Positions 4,520 to 54,665 of a DNA stretch of 64,000 nt are shown here, piece by piece. The position numbers were made by a program, and so were the translations under genes. Each line of letters begins with the position of its first letter. Position 1 is the first letter of the stretch. Under the pieces are notes generated by a model that was not told where the DNA came from, ran no database searches, and was given only the letters and a program-made list of their open reading frames with translations. This DNA comes from an uncultured Planctomycetales bacterium. Its GTDB lineage: Bacteria > Omnitrophota > Gorgyraeia > Zapsychrales > JANLHA01. Location: NCBI GenBank assembly GCA_964489065.1, contig CAZAXH010000003.1, positions 191,104 to 255,103 of the forward strand. The letters are read 5' to 3'.

Positions 4520-4602
<83 letters not shown>

Positions 4603-4607
4603 TATTT

Positions 4608-4761
4608 TATTCAATGAGCATTGAATTTACACGACCCAGGGGAGTGTAAATTCAAAATGCGAATTGATCCTTCAACGAGAGAGCCCAAGCGAACGAGTCG
4701 AAGGATAGTGGTTGAATACCCTGCTTGCTGTGGTTAATTGAGTGCAGAACTTGCTCTGGGG
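4608..4761 (+). ncRNA. Structured intergenic repeat element, full copy 1 (module A = two hairpins, module B = second hairpin pair). Candidate novel ncRNA or MITE
   Basis: tttattcaatgagcatt, then hairpin gaatttacac-gacccagggga-gtgtaaattc, then aaaatgcgaatt, then hairpin gatccttc...gaaggat, then module B ggttgaataccctgcttgctgtggttaattgagtgcagaacttgctctgggg. The same architecture recurs at 52126 and, on the minus strand, at 12782. Confidence 0.6.
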
Positions 4762-4786
4762 GTTATACCTTTGATTTCCGATACGC

Positions 4787-10688: not shown

Positions 10689-10916
10689 AAATCTCCTTGA
10701 GGAATTTTTGCTGTATGCCGAGTTCATTCCTCGTGTCCTTCCATCGGCAGGAACTCCTTTGTTTTGCATGTCTTCTCGATCTCTTACATCACTGCGCTCA
10801 AAGCAAATCCGGCCGGGGCTCCCTGTGCCCCCCAGCGATTGAATTATTACCGGGGGTTCTTCCTGTTTCCCATATTTTTGTCTTGGGCGTATAATAATGA
10901 AAAAGAGAGGATACAC

Positions 10917-12503: not shown

Positions 12504-12781
12504 TTCCCGCGTTCCCAGAAGGCCGGGGGCTTGTTTTGCTCATGCCCGCAATAAATAATCATGGTGTTTCTTCAGGGGGTAGGTTAGGTTTAAAATGATA
12601 GCTATTATAGGCGAAAAAGAGTATACTTAACTTGCATCACTTAAATAGATAAGTCCTGCCGCGCAGATCTCTTGATCTTCTTTCCTGATATCTGTCAGAT
12701 ATTCCATCTATTTATTTTCGATATTTAAGAAATACGAAAAGGAAATCCTGTTTTATCCGAGGAGTCAATGAAAGGCATGAA

Positions 12782-12927
12782 CCCCAGAGCAAGCTCTGGA
12801 CTCAATGAACCGCAGTAAGCTGCGGGGTATTAAATTAATATCCTTCAACTCGTTTGCTGAAGGATCAATTCTTATTTCTAGTTTACACTTCCTTAGGCCG
12901 TGTAAACTCAATGCTCGTCGAATAAAC
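12782..12927 (-). ncRNA. Structured intergenic repeat element, full copy 3 (modules A and B), minus orientation
   Basis: Its reverse complement reads ttcgacgagcattgagtttacac-ggcctaaggaa-gtgtaaactagaaataagaattgatccttcagcaaacgagttgaaggat...ttaataccccgcagcttactgcggttcattgagtccagagcttgctctgggg. Confidence 0.6.
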
Positions 12928-13959: not shown

Positions 13960-13982
13960 ACGGGCTTGTCTATAACCCCCTC

Positions 13983-14110
13983 CTTTGCCCTGTCCCTGAA
14001 TGGGGCCAGTCCCCTTGAGGGGACTGGCCCCGTAACGCGTAACGCACTATCTGTAACCTAACCCCCTGCTATTGAGAGATTGCAGGGGGTTTTTGTTTGA
14101 GGTAGAATGA
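13983..14110 (+). repeat. Intergenic repeat module T1 (GC hairpin, intrinsic terminator, then a -10-like box)
   Basis: cctttgccctgtccctgaatggggccagtcccc-ttga-ggggactggccccgtaa ... ccccctgc-tattgagagat-tgcaggggg-tttttgtttg-aggtagaatga. Terminator core at 14062-14098. Homologous copies at 47431, 51214 and 49361. Confidence 0.75.
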
Positions 14111-14158
14111 CTTCTGGAGACTTGAGCATCGTTTTAGATACCGACGAAGGAGGCTGGC

Positions 14159-14722
14159 ATGAAAAATAAAAATCAAAGGAATATTTTGTCGTGCGCGCGG
14201 GGCTTTTTAATCGGATTAATTGCTTTCAGTGGTTTGATTCATCAGGAAAAAACCGCCTTTGCCATGGCGATGAGTCCCTATATAGACATTGAGGCCACCG
14301 TTGTTTCTTTGTCATTGGAAAGCCCCGAGGGCTATTATGAGGACGGGAAATTGGTCAGGGCTCCGCTTGATTCAGCCGTTGTGAGAATAGATAAGATTTA
14401 TGAAAAAGGCGGAGACGAGCCGTTTGATTGGGCTTCTATCGGAATTGAAGCCGGGAAGGCCGTGGAGCTTGAATTTAAATATTCAGTCAGGCCCGCTAAA
14501 ATTGTGACCGTTGTTGGGCAAACGATACAATCCGGCAGTGTTGTTTCTCATATTGTTGCCCCTGCCGAAAATACGTTTGAAGACGGTTATTTTGTCTTTA
14601 GAGAAGACGGGAGCGCGGAAACCGAAACAATATTGCCGGGCTTGCAGGTCGGGTCCCGTTTCCGGACGAAATTATGGAAGACTTTCGAAGTGAAAGCAGG
14701 TCAGTATGAGGTATTGCATTAA
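14159..14722 (+). CDS. Hypothetical secreted protein
   Basis: N-terminal signal peptide (LIGLIAFSGLIHQEKTAFA), no recognisable domain. Good coding potential. Confidence 0.5.
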   Translation: MKNKNQRNILSCARGFLIGLIAFSGLIHQEKTAFAMAMSPYIDIEATVVSLSLESPEGYYEDGKLVRAPLDSAVVRIDKIYEKGGDEPFDWASIGIEAGKAVELEFKYSVRPAKIVTVVGQTIQSGSVVSHIVAPAENTFEDGYFVFREDGSAETETILPGLQVGSRFRTKLWKTFEVKAGQYEVLH

Positions 14723-29886: not shown

Positions 29887-31095
29887 ATGAAGATTAAAGT
29901 AGCTTGGATTCACGAGCACGTTTTTTTATCTACAAACGATGGGAGTGTGTTTAGTAAGGGAAAACTGCCATATTCCACATGGCGGCGTTATTTAAAGCAT
30001 TTTAGTGATATGATCATAATTGGGCGCTCCGGTGGCCAGTGCGCTGTGAAAGATTTGGTGGGGCTTACTTTGTCAAGTGGGGATAGGGTTGCTTTTCATC
30101 TAATCCCTGATATGTTATCACCGTTACAGATGATAAAGAATCGAGCCATCGTTTCCCAGACGATAAGGAATGTGCTTAAGAGAGTCGATGCTGTTATTGT
30201 TCGGCAATCTCCGCTCGGCTGGTTGGCTGCTGAAGAAGCTACTCGTCTAGGGATTCCTTGGGCTGTTGAAGTGGTTGCAGATGCCTGGAATGCTTACTGG
30301 AATTATGGGACGCTGGTGGCTAAATTATATGCCCCGAAGGCTTCATTTGATGCTCGTTATTGGCTGAGTCGCGCAAAATTTGCTATATACGTGACGCGCG
30401 AATATTTACAGAAACAATATCCATGTAAGGGTGTATCTTATGGTGTGTCAGATGTTCAAGTTTTTCCTGTTTCCGAAGAAGTCCTTGAAAACAGGATACT
30501 TCGCTGGAAGGCAGTAGAGGAGCCTTCCCCAGAACTCGTTATGATAGGTATGATTGGCTCTTTGTTTAATCGTTATAAAGGGCTTCACGTGGCATTACGG
30601 TCGTTGCGTAGATTGAAAGATCGAGGGATACGGCTTGCACTACGTGTTTTAGGAAATGGGCATTTGGATGCATGGCGTCAGGAAGCGGCGCGATTGGGAG
30701 TGGCTGATTTATTGTTTTTAGACGGCAGCTTGCCGAGCGGGGAACCAGTTTTTCGATGGTTGGATGGTTTGGATGTTTATATTCAGCCAAGTTTTCAGGA
30801 AGGATTGCCTCGTGCATTGATTGAGGCGATGAGTCGAGGATTGCCGGCGTTGGGTTCCACATGTGGCGGAATCCCTGAATTATTGCCGAAAGGATGTTTG
30901 CATCGGCCTGGTGATGACAAGAAATTAGCGGCACAATTAGAACAAATGCTTCGAGATCGTTCGTGGCGCATTGCCCAAGCTCAGCGGAATTTTAATGAGG
31001 CAAAAAATTATTACGTCGAAAGAATCGAAAGGCATCGCGATGCTTTTTGGCAGGTATTCGTAAAATATGTGCAGGAAACAAAAGCAGGTTCTTGA
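29887..31095 (+). CDS. Glycosyltransferase family 4 (paralogue pair A, copy 1)
   Basis: MIGSLFNRYKGLHVALRSLRRLKDRGIRLALRVLGNGH...YIQPSFQEGLPRALIEAMSRGLPALGS. Confidence 0.8.
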   Translation: MKIKVAWIHEHVFLSTNDGSVFSKGKLPYSTWRRYLKHFSDMIIIGRSGGQCAVKDLVGLTLSSGDRVAFHLIPDMLSPLQMIKNRAIVSQTIRNVLKRVDAVIVRQSPLGWLAAEEATRLGIPWAVEVVADAWNAYWNYGTLVAKLYAPKASFDARYWLSRAKFAIYVTREYLQKQYPCKGVSYGVSDVQVFPVSEEVLENRILRWKAVEEPSPELVMIGMIGSLFNRYKGLHVALRSLRRLKDRGIRLALRVLGNGHLDAWRQEAARLGVADLLFLDGSLPSGEPVFRWLDGLDVYIQPSFQEGLPRALIEAMSRGLPALGSTCGGIPELLPKGCLHRPGDDKKLAAQLEQMLRDRSWRIAQAQRNFNEAKNYYVERIERHRDAFWQVFVKYVQETKAGS

Positions 31096-31107
31096 GATAT
31101 ATATATT

Positions 31108-32301
31108 ATGATCGCTCTTTTTGTTGACAGTAATCGCTTTGTACGAGCGCAGGATGGCACAGTTTTTTCAGATGGACAATTTCCGTATCGGCGTTGGAAG
31201 AGGTATTTAAAACATTTTGATGGTTTAGTGGTTATCTGCCGCATGTCCGATTCTCTCTCAGCTCCGTCGACATGGAATTTGTCTTCAGGCCCACGGGTAA
31301 CCTTTGTTGGCACCCCAGACGACCATGGCAAGCCATTGAGACAGTTGCAAACACACTTATCCAGGAAAATCATCCGTCAACAGATGAAAAAGGTGGATGC
31401 TGTGATTATCCGTCAATCGGCGCTTGGCTGGTTAGCGGCAGAAGAAGCGGAGCGCCGAAGGGTGCCTTGGGCAGTGGAGGTTGTTAATGACGATTGGAAT
31501 GCTTATTGGCACTATGGTAGTTTCTTGGGAAAGCTTTATGCTCCAATTGCTTGGCATGGTTCGCGCTATTGGATTGGGAAATCAAGATTCGCAATTTACG
31601 TAAGCCGTACCTATTTGCAAAGGTTATATCCATGCCGCGGATTGTCTTTCGGGGTGTCTGACGCCGACATCCAAGAAGTCGCAGTTGCTGTATTGGAACA
31701 TAAAATGGCACGATGGAATTCGGAACAATCAGTTTGCCCTAAGCGTCCGGTAGTCGGCATGATTGGATCATTGTTTAATCGTTACAAAGGTCTGCACGTT
31801 GCGTTACGTGCATTACGCAGGTTAAAAGAGCGGGGGATACGACTTGAACTGCACGTTTTGGGGAATGGTCATTTAGATGTGTGGCGTCGGGAAGCAGTGA
31901 AGTTTGGGGTATCCAATATTTTGTCTCTGGATGGCAACTTACCGAGTGGTGAGCAGGTTTTTCAATGGTTGGATGGAATGGATATTTATATTCAACCAAG
32001 TTTAACGGAAGGATTACCCCGGTCGCTAATTGAGGCGATGAGCCGGGGGCTTCCGGCGTTGGGTTCTAGGTGTGGTGGTATCCTTGAGTTACTACCCGAA
32101 GAATGTTTACATCGGCCCGGTGACGACAAGACGTTGTCTCAACAATTAGAACGTATGGTTCGAAATCATTCATGGCGGATTGAGCAAGCCCGGAGGAACT
32201 TCCACGAGGCAGAGAATTACTATAACGAATACTTGGAGCCGCTTCGGGATGAATTTTTTCAGAAGTTTGTGAGCTTTGTCAAGAGGGAACGAAATTTATG
32301 A
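31108..32301 (+). CDS. Glycosyltransferase family 4 (paralogue pair A, copy 2, a tandem duplicate of the preceding gene)
   Basis: Colinear similarity across the full length to 29887-31095, e.g. MIGSLFNRYKGLHVALRALRRLKERGIRLELHVLGNGH and YIQPSLTEGLPRSLIEAMSRGLPALGS. Confidence 0.8.
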   Translation: MIALFVDSNRFVRAQDGTVFSDGQFPYRRWKRYLKHFDGLVVICRMSDSLSAPSTWNLSSGPRVTFVGTPDDHGKPLRQLQTHLSRKIIRQQMKKVDAVIIRQSALGWLAAEEAERRRVPWAVEVVNDDWNAYWHYGSFLGKLYAPIAWHGSRYWIGKSRFAIYVSRTYLQRLYPCRGLSFGVSDADIQEVAVAVLEHKMARWNSEQSVCPKRPVVGMIGSLFNRYKGLHVALRALRRLKERGIRLELHVLGNGHLDVWRREAVKFGVSNILSLDGNLPSGEQVFQWLDGMDIYIQPSLTEGLPRSLIEAMSRGLPALGSRCGGILELLPEECLHRPGDDKTLSQQLERMVRNHSWRIEQARRNFHEAENYYNEYLEPLRDEFFQKFVSFVKRERNL

Positions 32302-39110: not shown

Positions 39111-39200
39111 ATGAAACGCCTTTTCGACATTTTCTTTTCGGTTTTCGGGCTGGTGGTGTTTGCCATGTTGAGGGGGGGCGGCACCGTAAGTATTTGATTA
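39111..39200 (+). pseudogene. Truncated 5' remnant of an undecaprenyl-phosphate sugar-transferase gene (copy 1 of 3)
   Basis: atgaaacgccttttcgacattttcttttcggttttcgggctggtggtgtttgcc (MKRLFDIFFSVFGLVVFA) is preceded by an AGGAG ribosome-binding site and is identical to the first 54 nt of the remnant at 40647. It matches the 5' end of the intact gene at 42540 and then runs into a stop. Confidence 0.7.
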
Positions 39201-39310
39201 ATAATATATGTAAAAATATGAAGTTCTCCGAAGACTCGGGTTTCTTGACTAATTTAATGCGCATATTGATATAGTCTTGACTTTTTCAATATAAATGTTA
39301 AACTTTTGCT

Positions 39311-40540: not shown

Positions 40541-40646
40541 GTTTTTGGCGCTTGGGTAAGCGGATTTAAGACAGTCCAAGAACTTCATTTTTAGAAGAAC
40601 AGGGGCACAGAAATCGATGTTGGTGACTGAAAAAAATTTTCAACCA

Positions 40647-40764
40647 TGAAACGCCTTTTCGACATTTTCTTTTCGGTTTTCGGGCTGGTGGTGTTTGCCC
40701 CGGTTATGGGCGTCTCGGCCGCGTTTATCAAGTTGATCGCTTGCGGGGTGATGTTTTGGTATAT
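40647..40764 (+). pseudogene. Truncated 5' remnant of an undecaprenyl-phosphate sugar-transferase gene (copy 2 of 3)
   Basis: MKRLFDIFFSVFGLVVFAPVMGVSAAFIKL matches 42540 (MKRLFDIIFSLFGLVVFAPLMGASAALIKL), then diverges and stops. It runs directly into the 18-bp-arm palindrome. Confidence 0.7.
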
Positions 40765-42539: not shown

Positions 42540-43193
42540 ATGAAGAGATTATTCGACATTATATTTTCATTGTTCGGGCTGGTGGTGTTTGCCCCGCTTA
42601 TGGGGGCCTCGGCTGCGCTCATCAAGCTGACGTCCCCGGGCCCGGTGATTTACGCGCAGAAACGGGTGGGCCTGCATGAGCGGATTTTTGATGTTTACAA
42701 ATTCCGCTCCATGGTGGATAAAGCCGATACTTTAGGGACGTCGGTCACCACCGGGGTCGACCCGCGTATCACGCCGATCGGGCGGTTTCTGCGGAAGACC
42801 AAATTCGATGAGCTGCCCCAACTGTTTAACGTGCTTAAGGGCGACATGAGTTTTGTGGGTCCGCGGCCGGATGTTCCGGAGATCACTTCGAAATATACCC
42901 CCGATATGAAGCGTATCTTTATGATCCGTCCGGGCATCACCAGCGTGGCCACGCTGCATTTCCGGCACGAAGAAGAGATTTTGGCAAAGGTTAAGAACCC
43001 CGACGAGTTCTATGACAGGGTTGTCGTGCCTTTAAAGGTGGATCTGGCCATGGAACACGTCCGAAAGAATTCGTTTTCTTTCGATCTGCTGATTTTGATC
43101 CAGACGGTCTGGGTGCTGACCCCGTTGGGCAGAATATGGCCGGTCAAAGAACATAATTCGGTAAAATTATTCAGGGAGAAATACGCGTTATGA
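42540..43193 (+). CDS. Undecaprenyl-phosphate sugar phosphotransferase (small PglC/WbaP-C-type initiating transferase)
   Basis: Single N-terminal TM, then KRVGLHERIFDVYKFRSMV...FVGPRPDVPE, the bacterial sugar-transferase catalytic motifs. Confidence 0.9.
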   Translation: MKRLFDIIFSLFGLVVFAPLMGASAALIKLTSPGPVIYAQKRVGLHERIFDVYKFRSMVDKADTLGTSVTTGVDPRITPIGRFLRKTKFDELPQLFNVLKGDMSFVGPRPDVPEITSKYTPDMKRIFMIRPGITSVATLHFRHEEEILAKVKNPDEFYDRVVVPLKVDLAMEHVRKNSFSFDLLILIQTVWVLTPLGRIWPVKEHNSVKLFREKYAL

Positions 43194-47419: not shown

Positions 47420-47430
47420 ATTAAAGACAA

Positions 47431-47575
47431 CCTGTCCTGCCCTGTCCCTGAATGGGGGCCAGTCCCCTTGGGGGGACTGGCCCCGTAATCGTTAACTTAA
47501 CGGTAAGGTACTTTAACCCTCTGCGATTGAACAATTGGAATAATTGCAGGGGGTTTTTCTTTGGTGTACAATGGG
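47431..47575 (+). repeat. Intergenic repeat module T2 (GC hairpin plus intrinsic terminator)
   Basis: cctgtccctgaatgggggccagtcccc-ttgg-ggggactggccccgtaa ... ccctctgcgattgaacaattggaataattgcaggggg-tttttctttgg. Homologous to T1. Confidence 0.75.
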
Positions 47576-47589
47576 GAACAGTTTTTCAG

Positions 47590-47656
47590 AAGCCGGGATA
47601 TTGGTTTAATACCGCGCAGCCTGCTGTGGTTCATTGAGTCCACAGCTTGTTTTTGG
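47590..47656 (+). repeat. Partial copy of the structured repeat element, module B only
   Basis: ggtttaataccgcgcagcctgctgtggttcattgagtccacagcttgtttttggg. Compare module B of copy 1 (4706-4761) and copy 3. Confidence 0.55.
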
Positions 47657-47711
47657 GATTTTAATAAAGAAGGGTTATCCGGTTTGTTGCTAATTTGGGA
47701 AGAAAGTTTTT

Positions 47712-49227: not shown

Positions 49228-49360
49228 GAAATATTTGAAAACAAGAAGGTACGTCCCAGGGACAGCTAACAAAAAGAGTGCTTCTCCCCGTCATCGTAAT
49301 GTCCGAGCATATTTTGGGCTAGGTTTGCTGGCTCTTCGGCGTCCAAGTGCCGGGGCCGCT

Positions 49361-49400
49361 TCCTTTGCCCTGTCCCCCAGTGGGGACTGTCCCTTTTGGC
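49361..49400 (+). repeat. Degenerate partial copy (T4) of the T-module GC hairpin, at the left edge of the low-GC islet
   Basis: tcctttgccctgtcccccagtggggactgtccc against T1 tcctttgccctgtccctgaatggggccagtcccc. Confidence 0.5.
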
Positions 49401-51213: not shown

Positions 51214-51290
51214 TGTGGGGACTATCTGTAACCTTCTGCGATTGATTCATTGCAGGGGGTTTTTATTTGGGGTAGAATGGAAAAGATTTC
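51214..51290 (+). repeat. Partial intergenic repeat module T3 (terminator half plus ggtagaatg box) just upstream of lepB
   Basis: ggggactatctgtaaccttctgcgattgattcattgcaggggg-tttttatttgg-ggtagaatgg. Compare T1 ctatctgtaacctaaccccctgctattgagagattgcagggggtttttgtttgaggtagaatga. Confidence 0.7.
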
Positions 51291-51305: not shown

Positions 51306-52133
51306 GTGGGAAAATCGCAACCTAAAGATCCTTTCATCGCCCTCATGTTCTCTTTCATTTTTCCCGGGTTCGGGCAGATATACTCCGGGAGAATCAAAAG
51401 AGGTGTTTTCTTTTCATTAGCGCATTTGAATTTTATCCTGGCCCTGCTGCTGGTTATCTTTCATCCCACGAAGAAATTAAATCATCATATTTTGTCCCCC
51501 GTTTTTCTCTTTGTCCTTTTTGAGACTTTTGTGGTCCTGGACGCGTATCTTTACACCAAAAATTTGAAGTACCCCTTTAAGAAAACGTTTGTCCGGGTCG
51601 TCCTGATCCCTCTCGCCACCGTGATTTTCGTGCTTGTTTTTAATTTGAACATTCTTTTGGCGGAAATCGTGAACAAATTTATTGTGCTGGCGCCCAGGAT
51701 CGTGTCGAATTCCATGAGCCCCGTGTTGGTGGAAGGGGATTGGTTTCTGGTGAACAGATTCCGGTATTTGGCGGGGGCGCCGGAACGGGGGGATATTGTG
51801 TTTTTCGTCTTCCCGAAAGACAAAAGCAGGGTTGTCGTCAAAAGACTGATTGCCAAGGAGGGCGAGTCCGTTGAAATCAAAGACGGCCGTATTTATGTCG
51901 ATGACCAGCTCGTGGCAACTCCCGGCATAGCGGATATTTATTACTTCAATGGGGGCGACTTCGGCCGGGCTAATCAGGTGATAAACGTGCCGCAGGGCCA
52001 ATACTATGTTCTCGGTGATTACAGCGAGAAAAGCACGGACAGCCGTTTTTGGGGATTTGTCCCGAGAAAAAATATTATCGGGAAAGCTTATAAGATAGTT
52101 TATCCTTTTGAGCGGTCCGGATTTATTCAATGA
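51306..52133 (+). CDS. lepB: Signal peptidase I (S26 family) with an extended multi-TM N-terminus
   Basis: SNSMSPVLVEGDWFLVNR has the catalytic Ser. VVKRLIAKEGESV has the catalytic Lys. GDYSEKSTDSRFWGFVP is box E. Confidence 0.85.
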   Translation: MGKSQPKDPFIALMFSFIFPGFGQIYSGRIKRGVFFSLAHLNFILALLLVIFHPTKKLNHHILSPVFLFVLFETFVVLDAYLYTKNLKYPFKKTFVRVVLIPLATVIFVLVFNLNILLAEIVNKFIVLAPRIVSNSMSPVLVEGDWFLVNRFRYLAGAPERGDIVFFVFPKDKSRVVVKRLIAKEGESVEIKDGRIYVDDQLVATPGIADIYYFNGGDFGRANQVINVPQGQYYVLGDYSEKSTDSRFWGFVPRKNIIGKAYKIVYPFERSGFIQ

Positions 52134-52250
52134 GCATTTAGTTTACACGACCCAAGGGAGTGTAAACTAGAAATGCGAATTGATCCTGCGCGAGAGAGCT
52201 AAAGCGAACGAGCCGCAGGATGCTGGTTTACTCCTGATTCAGGGAAAGGA
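52126..52250 (+). ncRNA. Structured intergenic repeat element, copy 2 (module A complete, module B truncated). It overlaps the lepB stop codon
   Basis: tttattcaaTGAgcattta-gtttacac-gacccaaggga-gtgtaaac-tagaaatgcgaatt-gatcctgcg...ccgcaggat-gctggtttactcc. Confidence 0.6.
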
Positions 52251-52255
52251 ATGCC

Positions 52256-53548
52256 GTGGGCCTTAACGCGGTCTTAACAAAATCCTTGCGAAGCTGGCTT
52301 TCCGGCCGGGAAAGCAGATATGTGTTTCAGAAATTTGATCCGGCCGCGGATGCGTTTTCGTTCCCGCCGCAAGGCGGGCTGTATCTTCACATACCCTTTT
52401 GCAGGAATCTGTGCCCGTATTGCCCTTATTTCAGGATTCCCTATGAAACGGAAAAGGCGCGGCAATATAAGGAGGCGGTGCGGAAAGAAATCCGACTCTA
52501 TGGCCGGATGCTCCCGGGCGCCCGCTTCACCTCTTTGTACATCGGCGGGGGCACGCCGACATTAATGATCGATGAGCTGTCTGAAATTATAGCGGAGATA
52601 AAAAAGAATTTCGATTTTGACGGGCCGATCGGACTGGAGACTTCGCCCGGAGATATCACCGAAACCAATTTAGCCAAGTTGCGGGCTTTGGGCGTGAACC
52701 TGTTGAGTGTCGGCGTGCAGAGTTTTCAGGACAGGTTCCTGCACCGCATCGGAAGGAATTACGGCGGGGAGGAGGTGACCCGGGCCCTGCAGGCGCTGAA
52801 GAAGTTCAAATTTGACACGGTTAATTTCGACCTGATTTTTGTGTTGCCCCGGCAAACGATGCGCGACCTGGAAGACGACATCCGTAAAGCGCTTGCCTTC
52901 CGCCCGGACCAGATAACCTGGTATCCTTTGTTCACTTTTCCCTACACTTCCATCGGAGAGTATAAAAAATTGAAGGGCTTAAAACTCCCGAACGTGTTTA
53001 AACGGAGGACGATGTATTACCGTATTTATGACGTCCTTTCGCGGGAAGGCTACGCGCCGACCTCGGTCTGGTCGTTTAACCGGAAAGGCACGGCGCCCTA
53101 TTCTTCCGTGACCCGGGATTTTTTTCTCGGGCTGGGGGCGGGGGCCGGAACGTATACCAGGGAAGGTTTCTATTTCAATATTTTTTCCGTGGAGCATTAT
53201 AACGCGTTTTTAAACCGGGACAACCGTTTGCCGTTGGCCCTGAAGATGAACGTCTCCGAACGGATGGCGAAACTGTTCTGGCTTTACTGGCGTTTTTATG
53301 AAACGAAAATCCCCTTTGCGGAGTATCGCAGTCTTTTCGGGCGGGATTTGGAAGAAGATTTTGCCGCGGTTTTCAAAATCGTTAAGTTGTTGAGCCTGGC
53401 TGACGAACAGAAGGGGCCGGTGTTAAGCCTGAACAAGGCCGGCTCGCATTGGATTCACTTGTTGCAGAACTATTTCGCTTTGAATTATGTCAGCAAAATC
53501 TGGAAGATATGCAAGGACGACCCGCTGCCCCGGCAGATCGCGATTTAA
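52256..53548 (+). CDS. Radical SAM protein of the HemN/HemW (coproporphyrinogen-III oxidase-like) family
   Basis: LYLHIPFCRNLCPYCPYF (Cx3Cx2C), GGGTPT, and a HemN_C-like C-terminal domain. Confidence 0.75.
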   Translation: MGLNAVLTKSLRSWLSGRESRYVFQKFDPAADAFSFPPQGGLYLHIPFCRNLCPYCPYFRIPYETEKARQYKEAVRKEIRLYGRMLPGARFTSLYIGGGTPTLMIDELSEIIAEIKKNFDFDGPIGLETSPGDITETNLAKLRALGVNLLSVGVQSFQDRFLHRIGRNYGGEEVTRALQALKKFKFDTVNFDLIFVLPRQTMRDLEDDIRKALAFRPDQITWYPLFTFPYTSIGEYKKLKGLKLPNVFKRRTMYYRIYDVLSREGYAPTSVWSFNRKGTAPYSSVTRDFFLGLGAGAGTYTREGFYFNIFSVEHYNAFLNRDNRLPLALKMNVSERMAKLFWLYWRFYETKIPFAEYRSLFGRDLEEDFAAVFKIVKLLSLADEQKGPVLSLNKAGSHWIHLLQNYFALNYVSKIWKICKDDPLPRQIAI

Positions 53549-54449: not shown

Positions 54450-54520
54450 CTCCCTGTGCGCCAATATTTTTGATTAATTAATTGCGGGGAACTTTTTGAT
54501 GGGTGTAAAATGAGAACGTT

Positions 54521-54586
54521 TGCTTTACTACCCCGCAACTTGCTGCGGTCCATTGAGTTCAGGGCTTGCTTTGGGGTTCATATCTT
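54521..54586 (+). repeat. Partial copy of the structured repeat element, module B only
   Basis: tttactaccccgcaacttgctgcggtccattgagttcagggcttgctttgggg. Confidence 0.55.
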
Positions 54587-54665
54587 TGATTAATATGTGA
54601 GTTCCCGTAATTTCTTATCGTAGTTTTGTTATAAACAGCAGGCCAACTTTGGGTGGAGGTGGGTC

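Follow-up and report, generated by a model that had tools for sequence, protein, structure and literature searches.

What recurs beside a tRNA-Leu gene, across the stop codon of lepB and in front of a CSD-like gene in a single stretch of Omnitrophota DNA? The first-pass annotation of the window (the whole 64-kb stretch of DNA that was analysed) proposed a conserved structured repeat family, with three full and two partial copies, and left open whether each copy is a small RNA gene or a miniature mobile element. We have therefore examined the copies, their fold, their relatives and the sites at which they occur.

Copies in the window

Two covariance models were built in this analysis, R1 for the hairpins P1 and h2 and R2 for module B. 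When run on the window, R1 gives exactly three matches and R2 gives four, from which the following features are obtained.

4520-4602, plus strand: tRNA-Leu(GAG), upstream neighbour of copy 1 (context only)
4606-4708, plus strand: copy 1, P1+h2 (R1, 116.8 bits, E 6e-25)
4697-4785, plus strand: copy 1, module B, degenerate (R2, 81.3 bits)
12758-12849, minus strand: copy 3, module B (R2, 102.4 bits)
12838-12926, minus strand: copy 3, P1+h2 (R1, 76.7 bits)
47590-47681, plus strand: copy 4, module B alone (R2, 67.2 bits)
52122-52223, plus strand: copy 2, P1+h2 (R1, 118.6 bits); the whole copy is 52122-52243
54509-54600, plus strand: copy 5, module B alone (R2 match, 81.5 bits); the indel stretch is 54520-54584

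A repeat search of the window gives the same copy pairs as direct and inverted repeats. Moreover, the hairpin-1 pattern TTTACACNNCCNANGGNAGTGTAAA occurs in the window only at 4626-4650 (plus), 52142-52166 (plus) and 12882-12906 (minus), and has no match in 100 dinucleotide shuffles of the window. All five copies thus exist at, or a few bases from, the positions at which the first-pass annotation had placed them. Its division into three full and two partial copies, however, does not hold for copy 2, which has no R2 match and carries only the junction GGTTTACTCC + TGATT in place of module B, this junction coming after P1+h2 (GCTGGTTTACTCC + TGATT).

In copy 1, P1 reads TTCAATGAGCATTGAATTTACAC-GA-CC-CAG-GG-GA-GTGTAAATTCAAAATGCGAATTGA and h2 reads ATCCTTC...GAAGGAT; the first hairpin of its module B has a 3-nt deletion and the second has 2 mismatches, and the right end is GGTTATACC followed by TTTGATT. 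The h2 hairpin of copy 3 is short, with an interior of 6-12 nt, and its module B, CCGCAG-CTTA-CTGCGG + CCAGAG-CTTG-CTCTGG, is the best preserved in the window. Module B of copy 4 is preceded by a remnant of the h2 3' arm, GCCGGGATATTGG, and module B carries mismatches in both copies 4 and 5. Three of the four module B copies in the window (copies 1, 4 and 5) are partly degraded. Contigs L046-L048 in the Logan collection, from the same species, are identical to the window and hence uninformative on polymorphism.

Modular architecture

The canonical element runs from a left end through 1-7 tandem units of 89-95 nt to an optional module B. The left end is the 5' strand of an irregular hairpin of about 28 bp (P1), each unit holds the tip and the 3' strand of P1 and then another hairpin of rod-like shape (h2), and module B comprises two 6-bp hairpins. 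What had been described as a separate "5' box" and "linker" are the two strands of P1, within which hairpin 1 is contained. The junction repeat GGTTNA(A)TACC bounds every module, and the right end of the element adjoins TTTGAT. In addition, TTGAT-like pentamers, read directly from the sequences, are present at the module boundaries (AATTGAT before h2, GTTGAT or GTTGGT after h2, and CTTTGAT at the right end).

Tandem arrays are evident in TRF analyses of L007 (6.9 x 90 nt, 96%), L003 (5.0 x 90 nt, 97%) and L010 (5.8 x 95 nt, 92%); several contigs end within the repeats. Duplications and deletions of modules at the junction repeat give tandem arrays, B-less forms and B-only forms, and many elements are without module B. 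The family therefore has the organization of a BOX-like mosaic repeat, with fixed end modules and a variable tandem internal module present in N = 1 to 7 units. A CRISPR array was rejected because there are no spacers and the units agree at 92-97% over their full 90-95-nt period. A protein-coding repeat was likewise rejected, given that no ORF of at least 60 aa spans any element on either strand and that neither period, 89 or 95 nt, is divisible by 3.

Fold and covariation

For P1, 22 Watson-Crick pairs are paired in 95.6% of cells over 28 distinct copies, compared with 15-39% in slid controls. Double changes are seen at six of these pairs, in 28 cells, which is reached by only 0-2 of 500 shuffles. 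These values (controls at most 39%) bear out the proposal of a conserved structured repeat family. The compensatory changes that had been cited are also real: 14 copies have G-C and 12 have A-U at column pair 20/47, and two versions of the h2 stem occur, TTC/GAA and TGCG/CGCA. Covariation of the P1 stem across subfamilies is genuine, and the hairpins are maintained by compensatory change between subfamilies. Because an exact match to the P1 tip was what brought in all copies, the invariance of this tip is an ascertainment artefact.

The tandem G.A columns are kept in 24-26 of the 28 copies, and RNAfold gives an h2 design common to all subfamilies, namely a stem, GA/GA, 2 bp, and then either GNRA or a second GA/GA. 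Tandem G.A pairs are borne in four places on the sense strand, together with GNRA and CUUG tetraloops. The whole of copy 3 folds at -59.1 kcal/mol (z = -6.1) on the element strand and at -53.1 kcal/mol (z = -3.9) on the opposite strand. Under a two-hairpin model 88.5% of cells are paired in module B, and covariation of module B under this model is not significant. Two other folds were dropped: an RNAalifold fold of module B, which was shifted and poorly supported, and a long-range helix between the 5' box (TCAATGA) and module B (TCATTGA), which gave way to P1 since subfamily 2 reads AATCGGG.

No known RNA family accounts for the element, as the first-pass annotation had suspected. At the gathering threshold, Rfam 15 finds two tRNAs only in the whole window and tRNAs only in 16 related loci. 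At E<=10, copies 1 and 3 give nothing, or chance-level matches of <=16.8 bits against gathering scores of 45-62. The five window copies are real members of an undescribed family of small repeats, rich in hairpins, and not a new housekeeping RNA gene.

Spread among relatives

In Omnitrophota MAGs and in metagenomes, exact-pattern scans reveal about 30 more distinct elements, the pattern matches falling at 16 genome loci, 14 of which are in Omnitrophota MAGs (13 in one MAG), and at 29 metagenome loci. Covariance models built from the copies and searched in related sequences, as had been proposed, give a census of 28 full P1+h2 matches, about 20 internal units and 17 module B matches, every one of the last adjoining a P1+h2 match. 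Copies within one genome are near-identical. The elements have no blastn match in plasmids and phages. A viral origin, suggested by a single pattern match on a viral contig (L053), was rejected because this is the same contig as L034; L034, L030 and L042 are unrelated perfect palindromes.

Gene contexts and orientation

The contexts of the window copies are unrelated, as had been reported. Copy 1 begins, with its P1+h2, 4 nt past tRNA-Leu, and the order of tRNA and then element recurs with tRNA-Arg at L007. The lepB ORF ends at 52133, its TGA (52131-52133) lying within the AATGAGC of copy 2, and the radical SAM gene downstream of this copy starts at 52256. Copy 3 runs antisense to the genes on either side and ends 9-12 nt short of the start (12936/12939) of the CSD-like gene, which it directly precedes. 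Copy 4 is directly 3' of a promoter-like cassette, TTGCAG-17-TACAAT, and 55 nt before a gene for an FkbM-type methyltransferase, while copy 5 is directly 3' of the promoter-like TTGCGG-18-TAAAAT.

Throughout the family, elements are positioned immediately past stop codons, tRNAs, terminators or -10 boxes. Many copies start within or right after the stop codon of the upstream ORF (copy 2, L005, L014, L028, L029, L037, L041 and L044), many have the next start codon 10-80 nt past the element end, and a predicted -10 box lies no more than about 10 nt from the start of at least five elements (L003, L004, L027, L001/L038 and copy 5). The element strand is that of the adjacent ORF at 24 of 27 evaluable sites, the clearly antisense copies being copy 3, L004 on the minus strand, and L010. 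The downstream genes show no relation to one another: rpe, radical SAM, FkbM methyltransferase, TPP enzyme, Iso_dh, Mrp/Nuo subunit and solute-binding protein, and further Rex, ClpB, epimerase, acyl-CoA synthetase, GATase and response regulator. This diversity, and the fact that the element is missing at orthologous sites of relatives, led us to reject a riboswitch or gene-specific leader. A sigma-70 promoter scan finds no promoter inside any window copy, and an intrinsic terminator scan of the window marks h2 of copy 3 alone as terminator-like and leaves module B unmarked.

Occupied and empty sites

The synteny pyrG-tRNALeu-rpe is kept among relatives, of which only the one at 94% identity shares the element with the window. 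Copy 1 is absent from the orthologous site in relatives at 81% and 70% Rpe identity, and this site is empty in L051 and L052; the pyrG-tRNALeu-rpe intergenic length is 433 and 406 nt with the element versus 262 and 260 nt without it. From L054, L055 and L056 the module B of copy 5 is cleanly missing as a 65-nt block (54520-54584), the flanks being about 90% identical; either an insertion or a precise loss would account for this indel, no outgroup having that context. L057 (radical SAM, 61% identity) was left out as an outgroup for copies 2 and 5 because its upstream gene is different. The empty-site sequences are CTATTTTGATC and GGTTTTTGATAAC, both of which contain TTTTGAT. Blocks of the element are thus gained or lost precisely at T-run+GAT sites.

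Copy 1 is 82.7% identical to its L050 orthologue, against 86.5% at rpe third codon positions, and this orthologue also has a 23-nt deletion in B. Copy 2 has orthologues in L009 and L054; the latter is 88.5% identical to it, against 80.7%, and several of the differences break stems. In sister species, orthologous copies therefore decay at about the synonymous, or neutral, rate. These observations contradict the view that each copy is a functional RNA rather than a decaying duplicate: orthologues carry stem-breaking substitutions and deletions, divergence is approximately synonymous, and three of four module B copies in the window are degraded. Window copies 1 and 2 are nevertheless intact while their orthologues have decayed, which could reflect selection or gene conversion in the window genome.

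Discussion

We consider it probable that the family is a non-autonomous modular mobile repeat, a BOX/BIME-like mosaic, in a subset of Omnitrophota. A miniature mobile element is favoured because there are two orthologous empty sites, the number of modules varies, and copies within a genome are near-identical. This half of the earlier alternative therefore stands on the empty sites and module variation, whereas an autonomous small RNA is unlikely given that elements start at stop codons. Traits of the MITE type are present in the form of occupied/empty polymorphism, many near-identical copies, small size and lack of an ORF. Some points run contrary to this explanation. No convincing terminal inverted repeats are seen: when the right end is reverse-complemented (AATCAAAGGTAT), it matches the left end, TTCAATGAGCAT, at only about 8-10 of 12-13 positions, and the pairing partner of the left end is an internal strand, AAATGCGAATTGA, and not the right end. 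Target-site duplication is ambiguous, with only T-rich repeats at both junctions (TTTAT... on the left, TTTGAT on the right); a 3-nt TTT duplication is possible, which is indistinguishable from conserved element ends, and the left flanks have no consensus beyond the T-run. Finally, no mobilising gene is found in about 480 kb of DNA, a weak test in which tblastn with an IS200 TnpA query gave a best E of 0.76.

If the family is a mobile repeat, the fold would be required for its propagation, through recognition by a putative mobilising enzyme, and individual copies would not need it for any function in the host. Insertion may be oriented relative to an asymmetric T-rich target, which would explain why elements lie on the sense strand, and landing sites would be past stop codons, tRNAs and terminators, and also at transcription starts. 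The elements would then be co-transcribed passively into host mRNAs, in which they are expected to form very stable rods with tandem sheared G.A pairs and GNRA and CUUG loops. Such rods would probably hinder nucleases or serve for RNase III-type processing, with an effect on how stable neighbouring cistrons are; the number of units would be a tunable parameter.

The sense-strand bias and the RNA-typical motifs of the sense strand also fit an RNA function selected by the host. The element might be a cis-acting RNA cassette, a portable 5'-UTR or intercistronic module with tandem-G.A hairpins to which a dedicated RNA-binding protein or a nuclease binds, in which case mRNAs with the element would be regulated together after transcription, as a single regulon, and the response would be tuned by the number of units. 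Covariation at the level of the family agrees with this idea, as do the sense orientation at 24 of 27 sites, the proximity of at least five elements to a predicted -10 box, and the two elements that lie past tRNA 3' ends and thus at the 5' end of the downstream RNA; so do the sense-strand location of the tandem sheared G.A, GNRA and CUUG motifs and the better sense fold (-59.1 against -53.1 kcal/mol). We regard it as unlikely, however, because orthologues show deletions and changes that break stems and decay near the neutral rate, close relatives have empty orthologous sites with no replacement, three copies are clearly antisense, and the flanking genes have no common theme. Moreover, oriented insertion at a T-rich target gives the same strand bias without selection. 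An alternative that we judge improbable is that the hairpins act in single-stranded DNA, as in REP/BIME or PATE elements, and are mobilised in trans by an HUH Y1 transposase; here an IS200/IS605 TnpA or RAYT would recognise subterminal hairpins plus a TTGAT-like penta- or hexanucleotide, and the structure in RNA would be incidental. A precedent is ISDra2, a member of the IS200/IS605 family, which inserts 3' to TTGAT via single-stranded DNA (PMC2806898), and TTTTGAT is present in both empty sites and TTTGAT at most right junctions. Module boundaries repeatedly bear TTGAT-like pentamers, no obvious duplication accompanies the clean block indels, the imperfect hairpins come in pairs of like shape (P1 tip with h2, and the two of module B), and the motifs are strand-specific. 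On the strand with the G.A motifs, however, TTTGAT sits 3' of the element, and the target expected for IS200/IS605, 5' of the left end (PMC2806898), is absent. The TTGAT before h2 overlaps the h2 stem, the GTAG-type REP signature is absent, and the weak test over about 480 kb found no Y1 transposase.

Independent genes for trans-acting sRNAs, possibly multi-hairpin protein sponges like CsrB/RsmZ, with their own promoter and with module B as terminator, are very improbable. Many copies begin at or in an upstream stop codon with no promoter, the next start codon is 10-80 nt on, leaving no room for another promoter, the terminator scan of the window passes over module B, module B is missing from many elements, and copies decay in sister species. 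These points are set against a -10 box just upstream of some copies, a hairpin and U-rich tract at the end of module B (GGUUUAUACCUUUGAUU), repeated units with GGA-containing loops (AAGGGA, GAAGGAU), and a variable repeat number. A broader reading, which we hold to be doubtful, is that the family is either a portable, self-spreading RNA cassette with a host-level role or a modular repeat mobilised by an HUH or other enzyme at a TTGAT-type target of inverted polarity. In the former case, the units could be tandem-G.A platforms for a dedicated Omnitrophota protein or nuclease, insertion at transcript 5' ends and between cistrons would bring unrelated genes under a common post-transcriptional control, and expansion and contraction of units would tune expression; in the latter, the family could be the first example of a modular repeat mobilised in this way.

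Comparison with known systems places the mobile repeat closest in kind to the BOX elements of Streptococcus pneumoniae, which have the arrangement boxA-(boxB)n-boxC and are folded, co-transcribed and judged parasitic (PMC3049150). Both families are modular, with fixed ends and an internal module in zero to several tandem copies, and both have no coding capacity, a narrow clade and a supposedly non-autonomous nature; BOX transcripts are highly base-paired and shared with neighbouring genes, as those of the Omnitrophota family are expected to be (PMC3049150). The likeness is of kind only, as there is no sequence relationship, and sequence homology to pneumococcal BOX is very unlikely given the different phylum and the lack of plasmid or phage blastn matches. 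BoxB is 45 bp in length, compared with about 90 nt for the Omnitrophota repeat unit. BOX ends pair together as terminal inverted repeats, whereas in the Omnitrophota family P1 arises from pairing of the left end to an internal strand, and BOX is over-represented between convergent genes (coding strand about 61%) whereas the Omnitrophota family is mostly upstream of, and sense to, the next gene (24/27).

The REP/BIME elements with RAYT of Enterobacteria and Pseudomonas, and the IS200/IS605-derived PATEs, resemble the family in their imperfect hairpins with conserved mismatches and their mosaic arrays; like it, they are extragenic, and they are transcribed, as the family is expected to be, and can stabilise upstream mRNA or attenuate transcription. 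They are mobilised, or thought to be so, by recognition of ssDNA hairpins beside a short target, with no classical target-site duplication. The Omnitrophota hairpins are far longer than those of REP/BIME (P1 about 28 bp, h2 12-17 bp), and the modules are in direct rather than alternating orientation and lack the GTAG motif. In contrast to REP/PATE, the TTGAT-like motif is on the 3' side and no RAYT or TnpA was found, albeit in a weak test. ERIC/IRU and the Correia elements of Neisseria share a length of 100-200 nt and insertion in transcribed intergenic regions, and their folds create RNase E/RNase III sites and alter expression of neighbours in an orientation-dependent manner (PMC3049150). 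They differ in having clear terminal inverted repeats, of which the Omnitrophota family has no convincing equivalent, in the TA duplications of Correia, and in being simple, without tandem internal units. CsrB/RsmZ sRNAs also carry a variable number of similar hairpin units with GGA motifs per transcript, but these are single-locus, orthologously conserved genes with their own promoter and terminator, whereas the Omnitrophota elements are dispersed, would lie in mRNAs and have decaying copies; the resemblance is therefore functional speculation only.

There is no earlier description of an interspersed repeat family of Omnitrophota in the literature searched or in Rfam, and this would be the first for an uncultivated phylum known almost only from MAGs. 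Preservation of structure at the level of the family together with neutral decay of single copies calls for caution in covariation-based ncRNA discovery, and an ncRNA gene may be annotated in error where such a repeat lies. Should proteins turn out to bind the hairpins, or processing to occur at them, arrays of variable unit number would offer a simple means of tuning expression. Repeats of this kind also break short-read assemblies, and they can supply stop codons to genes, as at lepB.

Element copies in the window

The behaviour of the element family is that of a non-autonomous mobile mosaic repeat, a reading that rests on near-identical copies within genomes, patchy presence among close relatives and neutral decay of inserted copies, and also on block gain and loss at a specific T-rich site and module turnover at a junction repeat. 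The three long and two short copies of the first-pass annotation are present as described, except that copy 2 lacks module B, a two-hairpin block. A repeat finder recovers the copies in the window as pairs D10, D15 and I1-I4, and the hairpin-1 pattern TTTACACNNCCNANGGNAGTGTAAA matches the window only at 4626, 52142 and 12882 (minus strand), with 0 matches in 100 shuffled windows. Covariance models R1, of P1 (the ~28-bp hairpin containing hairpin 1) with hairpin 2 (h2), and R2, of module B, gave exactly three and four matches, respectively; module B is already damaged in three of its four copies.

Covariance-model matches in the window
52122-52223, plus strand, P1+h2 (R1)
4606-4708, plus strand, P1+h2 (R1)
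12838-12926, minus strand, P1+h2 (R1)
12758-12849, minus strand, module B (R2)
54509-54600, plus strand, module B (R2)
4697-4785, plus strand, module B (R2)
47590-47681, plus strand, module B (R2)

The contexts assigned to the long copies were correct: copy 1 follows tRNA-Leu(GAG), which ends at 4602; copy 2 overlaps an S26 signal peptidase ORF ending at 52133, whose TGA is that of the element's AATGAGC; and copy 3 is antisense and ends just ahead of a CSD-like gene. At 52122-52133 the element encodes the last three codons and stop of the lepB-like signal peptidase gene (TTT ATT CAA TGA), as it also does in the sister-species locus L054.

The element is not a known RNA: Rfam at gathering thresholds gave two tRNAs and nothing else in the whole window and tRNAs only in 16 related loci; at a permissive E<=10, copies 1 and 3 gave no match or chance-level matches. 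Moreover, blastn against plasmid and phage collections found no match to the element, and the family, absent from Rfam, is not described in the literature that we found on Omnitrophota repeats and BOX elements. Because small, modular, structured interspersed repeats are already known as a kind, this is a new family of a familiar type, itself undescribed and in a poorly known phylum.

Gain, loss and decay at orthologous sites

The pyrG-tRNALeu-rpe order is kept in relatives found via Rpe. A relative with 94% identity (L049/L050) carries an element at the same place as copy 1, in which P1 shows two changes that are compensatory and three that are disruptive, and module B has a deletion of 23 nt. 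Two more distant relatives with 3.3-Mb genomes (L051 and L052; 81% and 70% identity) have the tRNA and no element, their intergenic regions measuring 262 and 260 nt as against 433 nt in the window, and neither R1 nor R2 finds a match in 40 kb of these two loci. The JAKQKX01 sister species (L054; radical SAM 91% identity) has the orthologue of copy 2 with several stem-breaking substitutions, and the module B of copy 5 is absent there as a clean 65-nt indel (window 54520-54584) between flanks that are ~90% identical. Both empty sites consist of a T-run plus GAT (CTATTTTGATC and GGTTTTTGATAAC), and the left junction of occupied sites reads TTT... and the right one TTTGAT.

Copy 1 is 82.7% identical to its L050 counterpart, compared with 86.5% at rpe third codon positions, and copy 2 is 88.5% identical to that of L054, compared with 80.7% at radical SAM third positions; for the module B of copy 1 the orthologous comparison gives 63.6%. 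Divergence is thus near the third-position level, and no purifying selection is visible on individual copies. Among the options of the first-pass annotation, the MITE is favoured. Separately, L049 19437-20714 (a JGI contig) contains a second rpe and pyrG in inverted orientation, together with FIST/HisKA/GGDEF genes in mirror order; this arrangement resembles an inverted-duplication artefact of assembly and is missing from the parallel contig L050.

Relatives and modular architecture

With one genome taken per species, an exact-pattern scan gave 16 loci, and a metagenome scan added 29, three of which (L030, L034 and L042) proved to be perfect palindromes unrelated to the element.

Loci from the genome scan
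13 loci, Omnitrophota MAG Go_SlDig_bin_317
1 locus, second Omnitrophota MAG, JAKQKX01
2 loci, UBP3 genomes

The element begins with a left end, TTTATTCAATGAGCATTnAGTTTAC, followed by 1 to 7 tandem units and then, optionally, module B. Units are 89-95 nt long (ACGACCnAAGGGAGTGTAAAC..ATGCGAATTGATCC...GGAT) and abut without spacers, forming TRF arrays of 6.9 x 90 nt at 96%, 5.0 x 90 nt at 97% and 5.8 x 95 nt at 92%; no ORF of at least 60 aa spans any element. Every module, unit and B alike, is bounded by a short junction, GGTTNA(A)TACC. Copies lacking B, such as copy 2 and L012, retain one junction followed by (T)TGATT, the outcome expected from unequal recombination at the junction repeat.

At one locus seen both in a MAG (L010) and in an activated-sludge assembly (L020), the array differs by one 95-nt unit, which could be due to populations differing in copy number or to a collapse in assembly. 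On the minus strand of L015 (168-480 of that strand), ~190 nt of unrelated hairpin-rich sequence lies between P1+h2 and module B, and a second element in opposite orientation is nearby on the same 3-kb contig. Short-read contigs L046, L047, L022, L024, L036 and L043 start or stop inside the element or its arrays, so the repeat family breaks up the assemblies of such genomes.

Fold and covariation

What had been described as a separate "5' box" and "linker" are in fact the two strands of P1, with hairpin 1 inside. P1 has 22 Watson-Crick pairs, which over 28 distinct copies form in 95.6% of cells (15-39% in slid controls), and double-sided changes at six pairs (28 cells) are equalled by only 0-2 of 500 shuffles. 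At column pair 20/47, 14 copies have G-C and 12 have A-U, and in divergent subfamilies the outer GCAU/AUGC is replaced by GCGC/GCGC, GCAC/GUGC or GCAA/UUGC; the invariance of the inner stem arises solely from its use as the search pattern. Two tandem G.A/A.G motifs are kept in 24-26 of the 28 copies, L001 having Watson-Crick pairs in place of the basal one. All subfamilies share an h2 design of stem, GA/GA internal loop and 2 bp, ending in a GNRA tetraloop (GAAA, GCGA or GAGA) in subfamily 2 or, alternatively, in a second GA/GA and tetraloop, and the outer stem covaries (UUC/GAA, UGCG/CGCA, CCC/GGG). Module B comprises two 6-bp hairpins, each with a CUUG-type loop, that RNAalifold by itself mis-folds; it is paired in 88.5% of cells (35-55% in slid controls), and its covariation is not significant.

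The G.A pairs and the GNRA and CUUG loops are confined to the given strand; the complement would have C.U mismatches. P1 shows 30 G.U against 11 A.C, and the folding energy of copy 3 is -59.1 kcal/mol (z = -6.1) for the given strand and -53.1 (z = -3.9) for the opposite one. The strand chosen in the first-pass annotation is therefore the folding strand.

Orientation and insertion sites

Based on plain ORF calls, the element and its adjacent ORF(s) share a strand at 24 of 27 evaluable sites (one-sided binomial ~2.5e-5 vs 0.5), the antisense cases being copy 3, L004 (minus strand) and L010, with L007, L016 and L045 ambiguous. In most cases the next sizeable ORF begins 10-180 nt beyond the element, and no function is shared among these downstream genes. 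The upstream ORF often ends inside the element or a few bases before it (copy 2, L005, L014, L028, L029, L037, L041 and L044). Other elements start directly after a tRNA (copy 1; tRNA-Arg in L007), after a terminator T-run (L008 and L035) or 7-15 nt past a -10 box (L003, L004, L027, L001/L038, and copies 4 and 5).

Interpretation and alternatives

Compensatory changes between subfamilies mean that the family depends on the fold for its persistence, the simplest reading being recognition by whatever mobilises the element. The earlier inference from covariation to a functional RNA is valid for the family and fails for individual copies, which decay neutrally. Oriented insertion at an asymmetric T-rich target would alone give the sense bias, the presumed targets being T-runs of the sense strand, located at transcription starts and behind stops, tRNAs and terminators. 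We infer that the elements are co-transcribed, and their very stable rods may block nucleases or serve as RNase III-type sites, roles that have been described for BOX, REP, ERIC and Correia elements (PMC3049150).

A host-selected RNA cassette remains as an alternative that would account for the RNA-typical motifs and 5'-terminal positions, although copy decay and patchy presence argue against it. There is a modest chance that the units with their tandem-G.A hairpins truly serve as a cassette for protein binding or processing, or that they reveal an unusual mobilisation mechanism. Another remaining alternative is a single-stranded-DNA mechanism of the REP/PATE kind that uses a Y1 transposase; it is hinted at by TTGAT-like pentamers, which occur at module boundaries and in both empty sites. 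ISDra2, however, inserts 3' to TTGAT (PMC2806898), whereas the TTGAT-like motif of the element is on its 3' side, and no Y1 gene was seen in ~480 kb, a weak test by tblastn with an IS200 TnpA query. Independent sRNA genes are unlikely given that elements overlap stop codons and leave no room for promoters. The family is useful for annotating and assembling Omnitrophota genomes and is a warning for ncRNA discovery.

Other repeats

A second repeat family in the window looks like a terminator-promoter cassette.

Second repeat family and related promoter
13976-14119, 47428-47583 and 51226-51289, copies
49356-49398 and 10823-10849, partial copies
54476-54512, related promoter

The cassette has a 13-bp GC hairpin (GGGGCCAGTCCCC-TTG-GGGGACTGGCCCC), a second hairpin with TTGCAGGGGGTTTTT at its end (terminator-like flag at 51230-51261) and a -10 box (TACAAT or TAGAAT) 17 nt past TTGCAG. 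Cassettes precede plus-strand genes at 14159, 47712 and 51306, and the B-only copies 4 and 5 are both directly downstream of a promoter of this type.

Two further repeat sets are unrelated to the element: the repeated 5' ends of neighbouring plus-strand genes at 39111-39201, 40646-40736 and 42540-42630 (ATGAAACGCCTTTTCGACATTTTC...), and a 300-nt repeat of 76% identity at 30547-30846 and 31756-32055. Both probably reflect paralogous sugar-transferase or glycosyltransferase genes of a polysaccharide cluster.

In L002 (255-510) and L006 (UBP3 JAQUNG01 and DJVC01), the 5' half of tRNA-Val and 15 nt upstream are duplicated, and the ~195 nt separating the duplicate from the intact tRNA-Val contains two P1-like hairpins in opposite orientation (one of them TTTACG-GA-AC-GAAA-GT-GA-ACGTAAA; R1 scores of 40 and 31 bits). 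These hairpins may be distantly related to the element family, in another phylum and linked with a tRNA-gene rearrangement.
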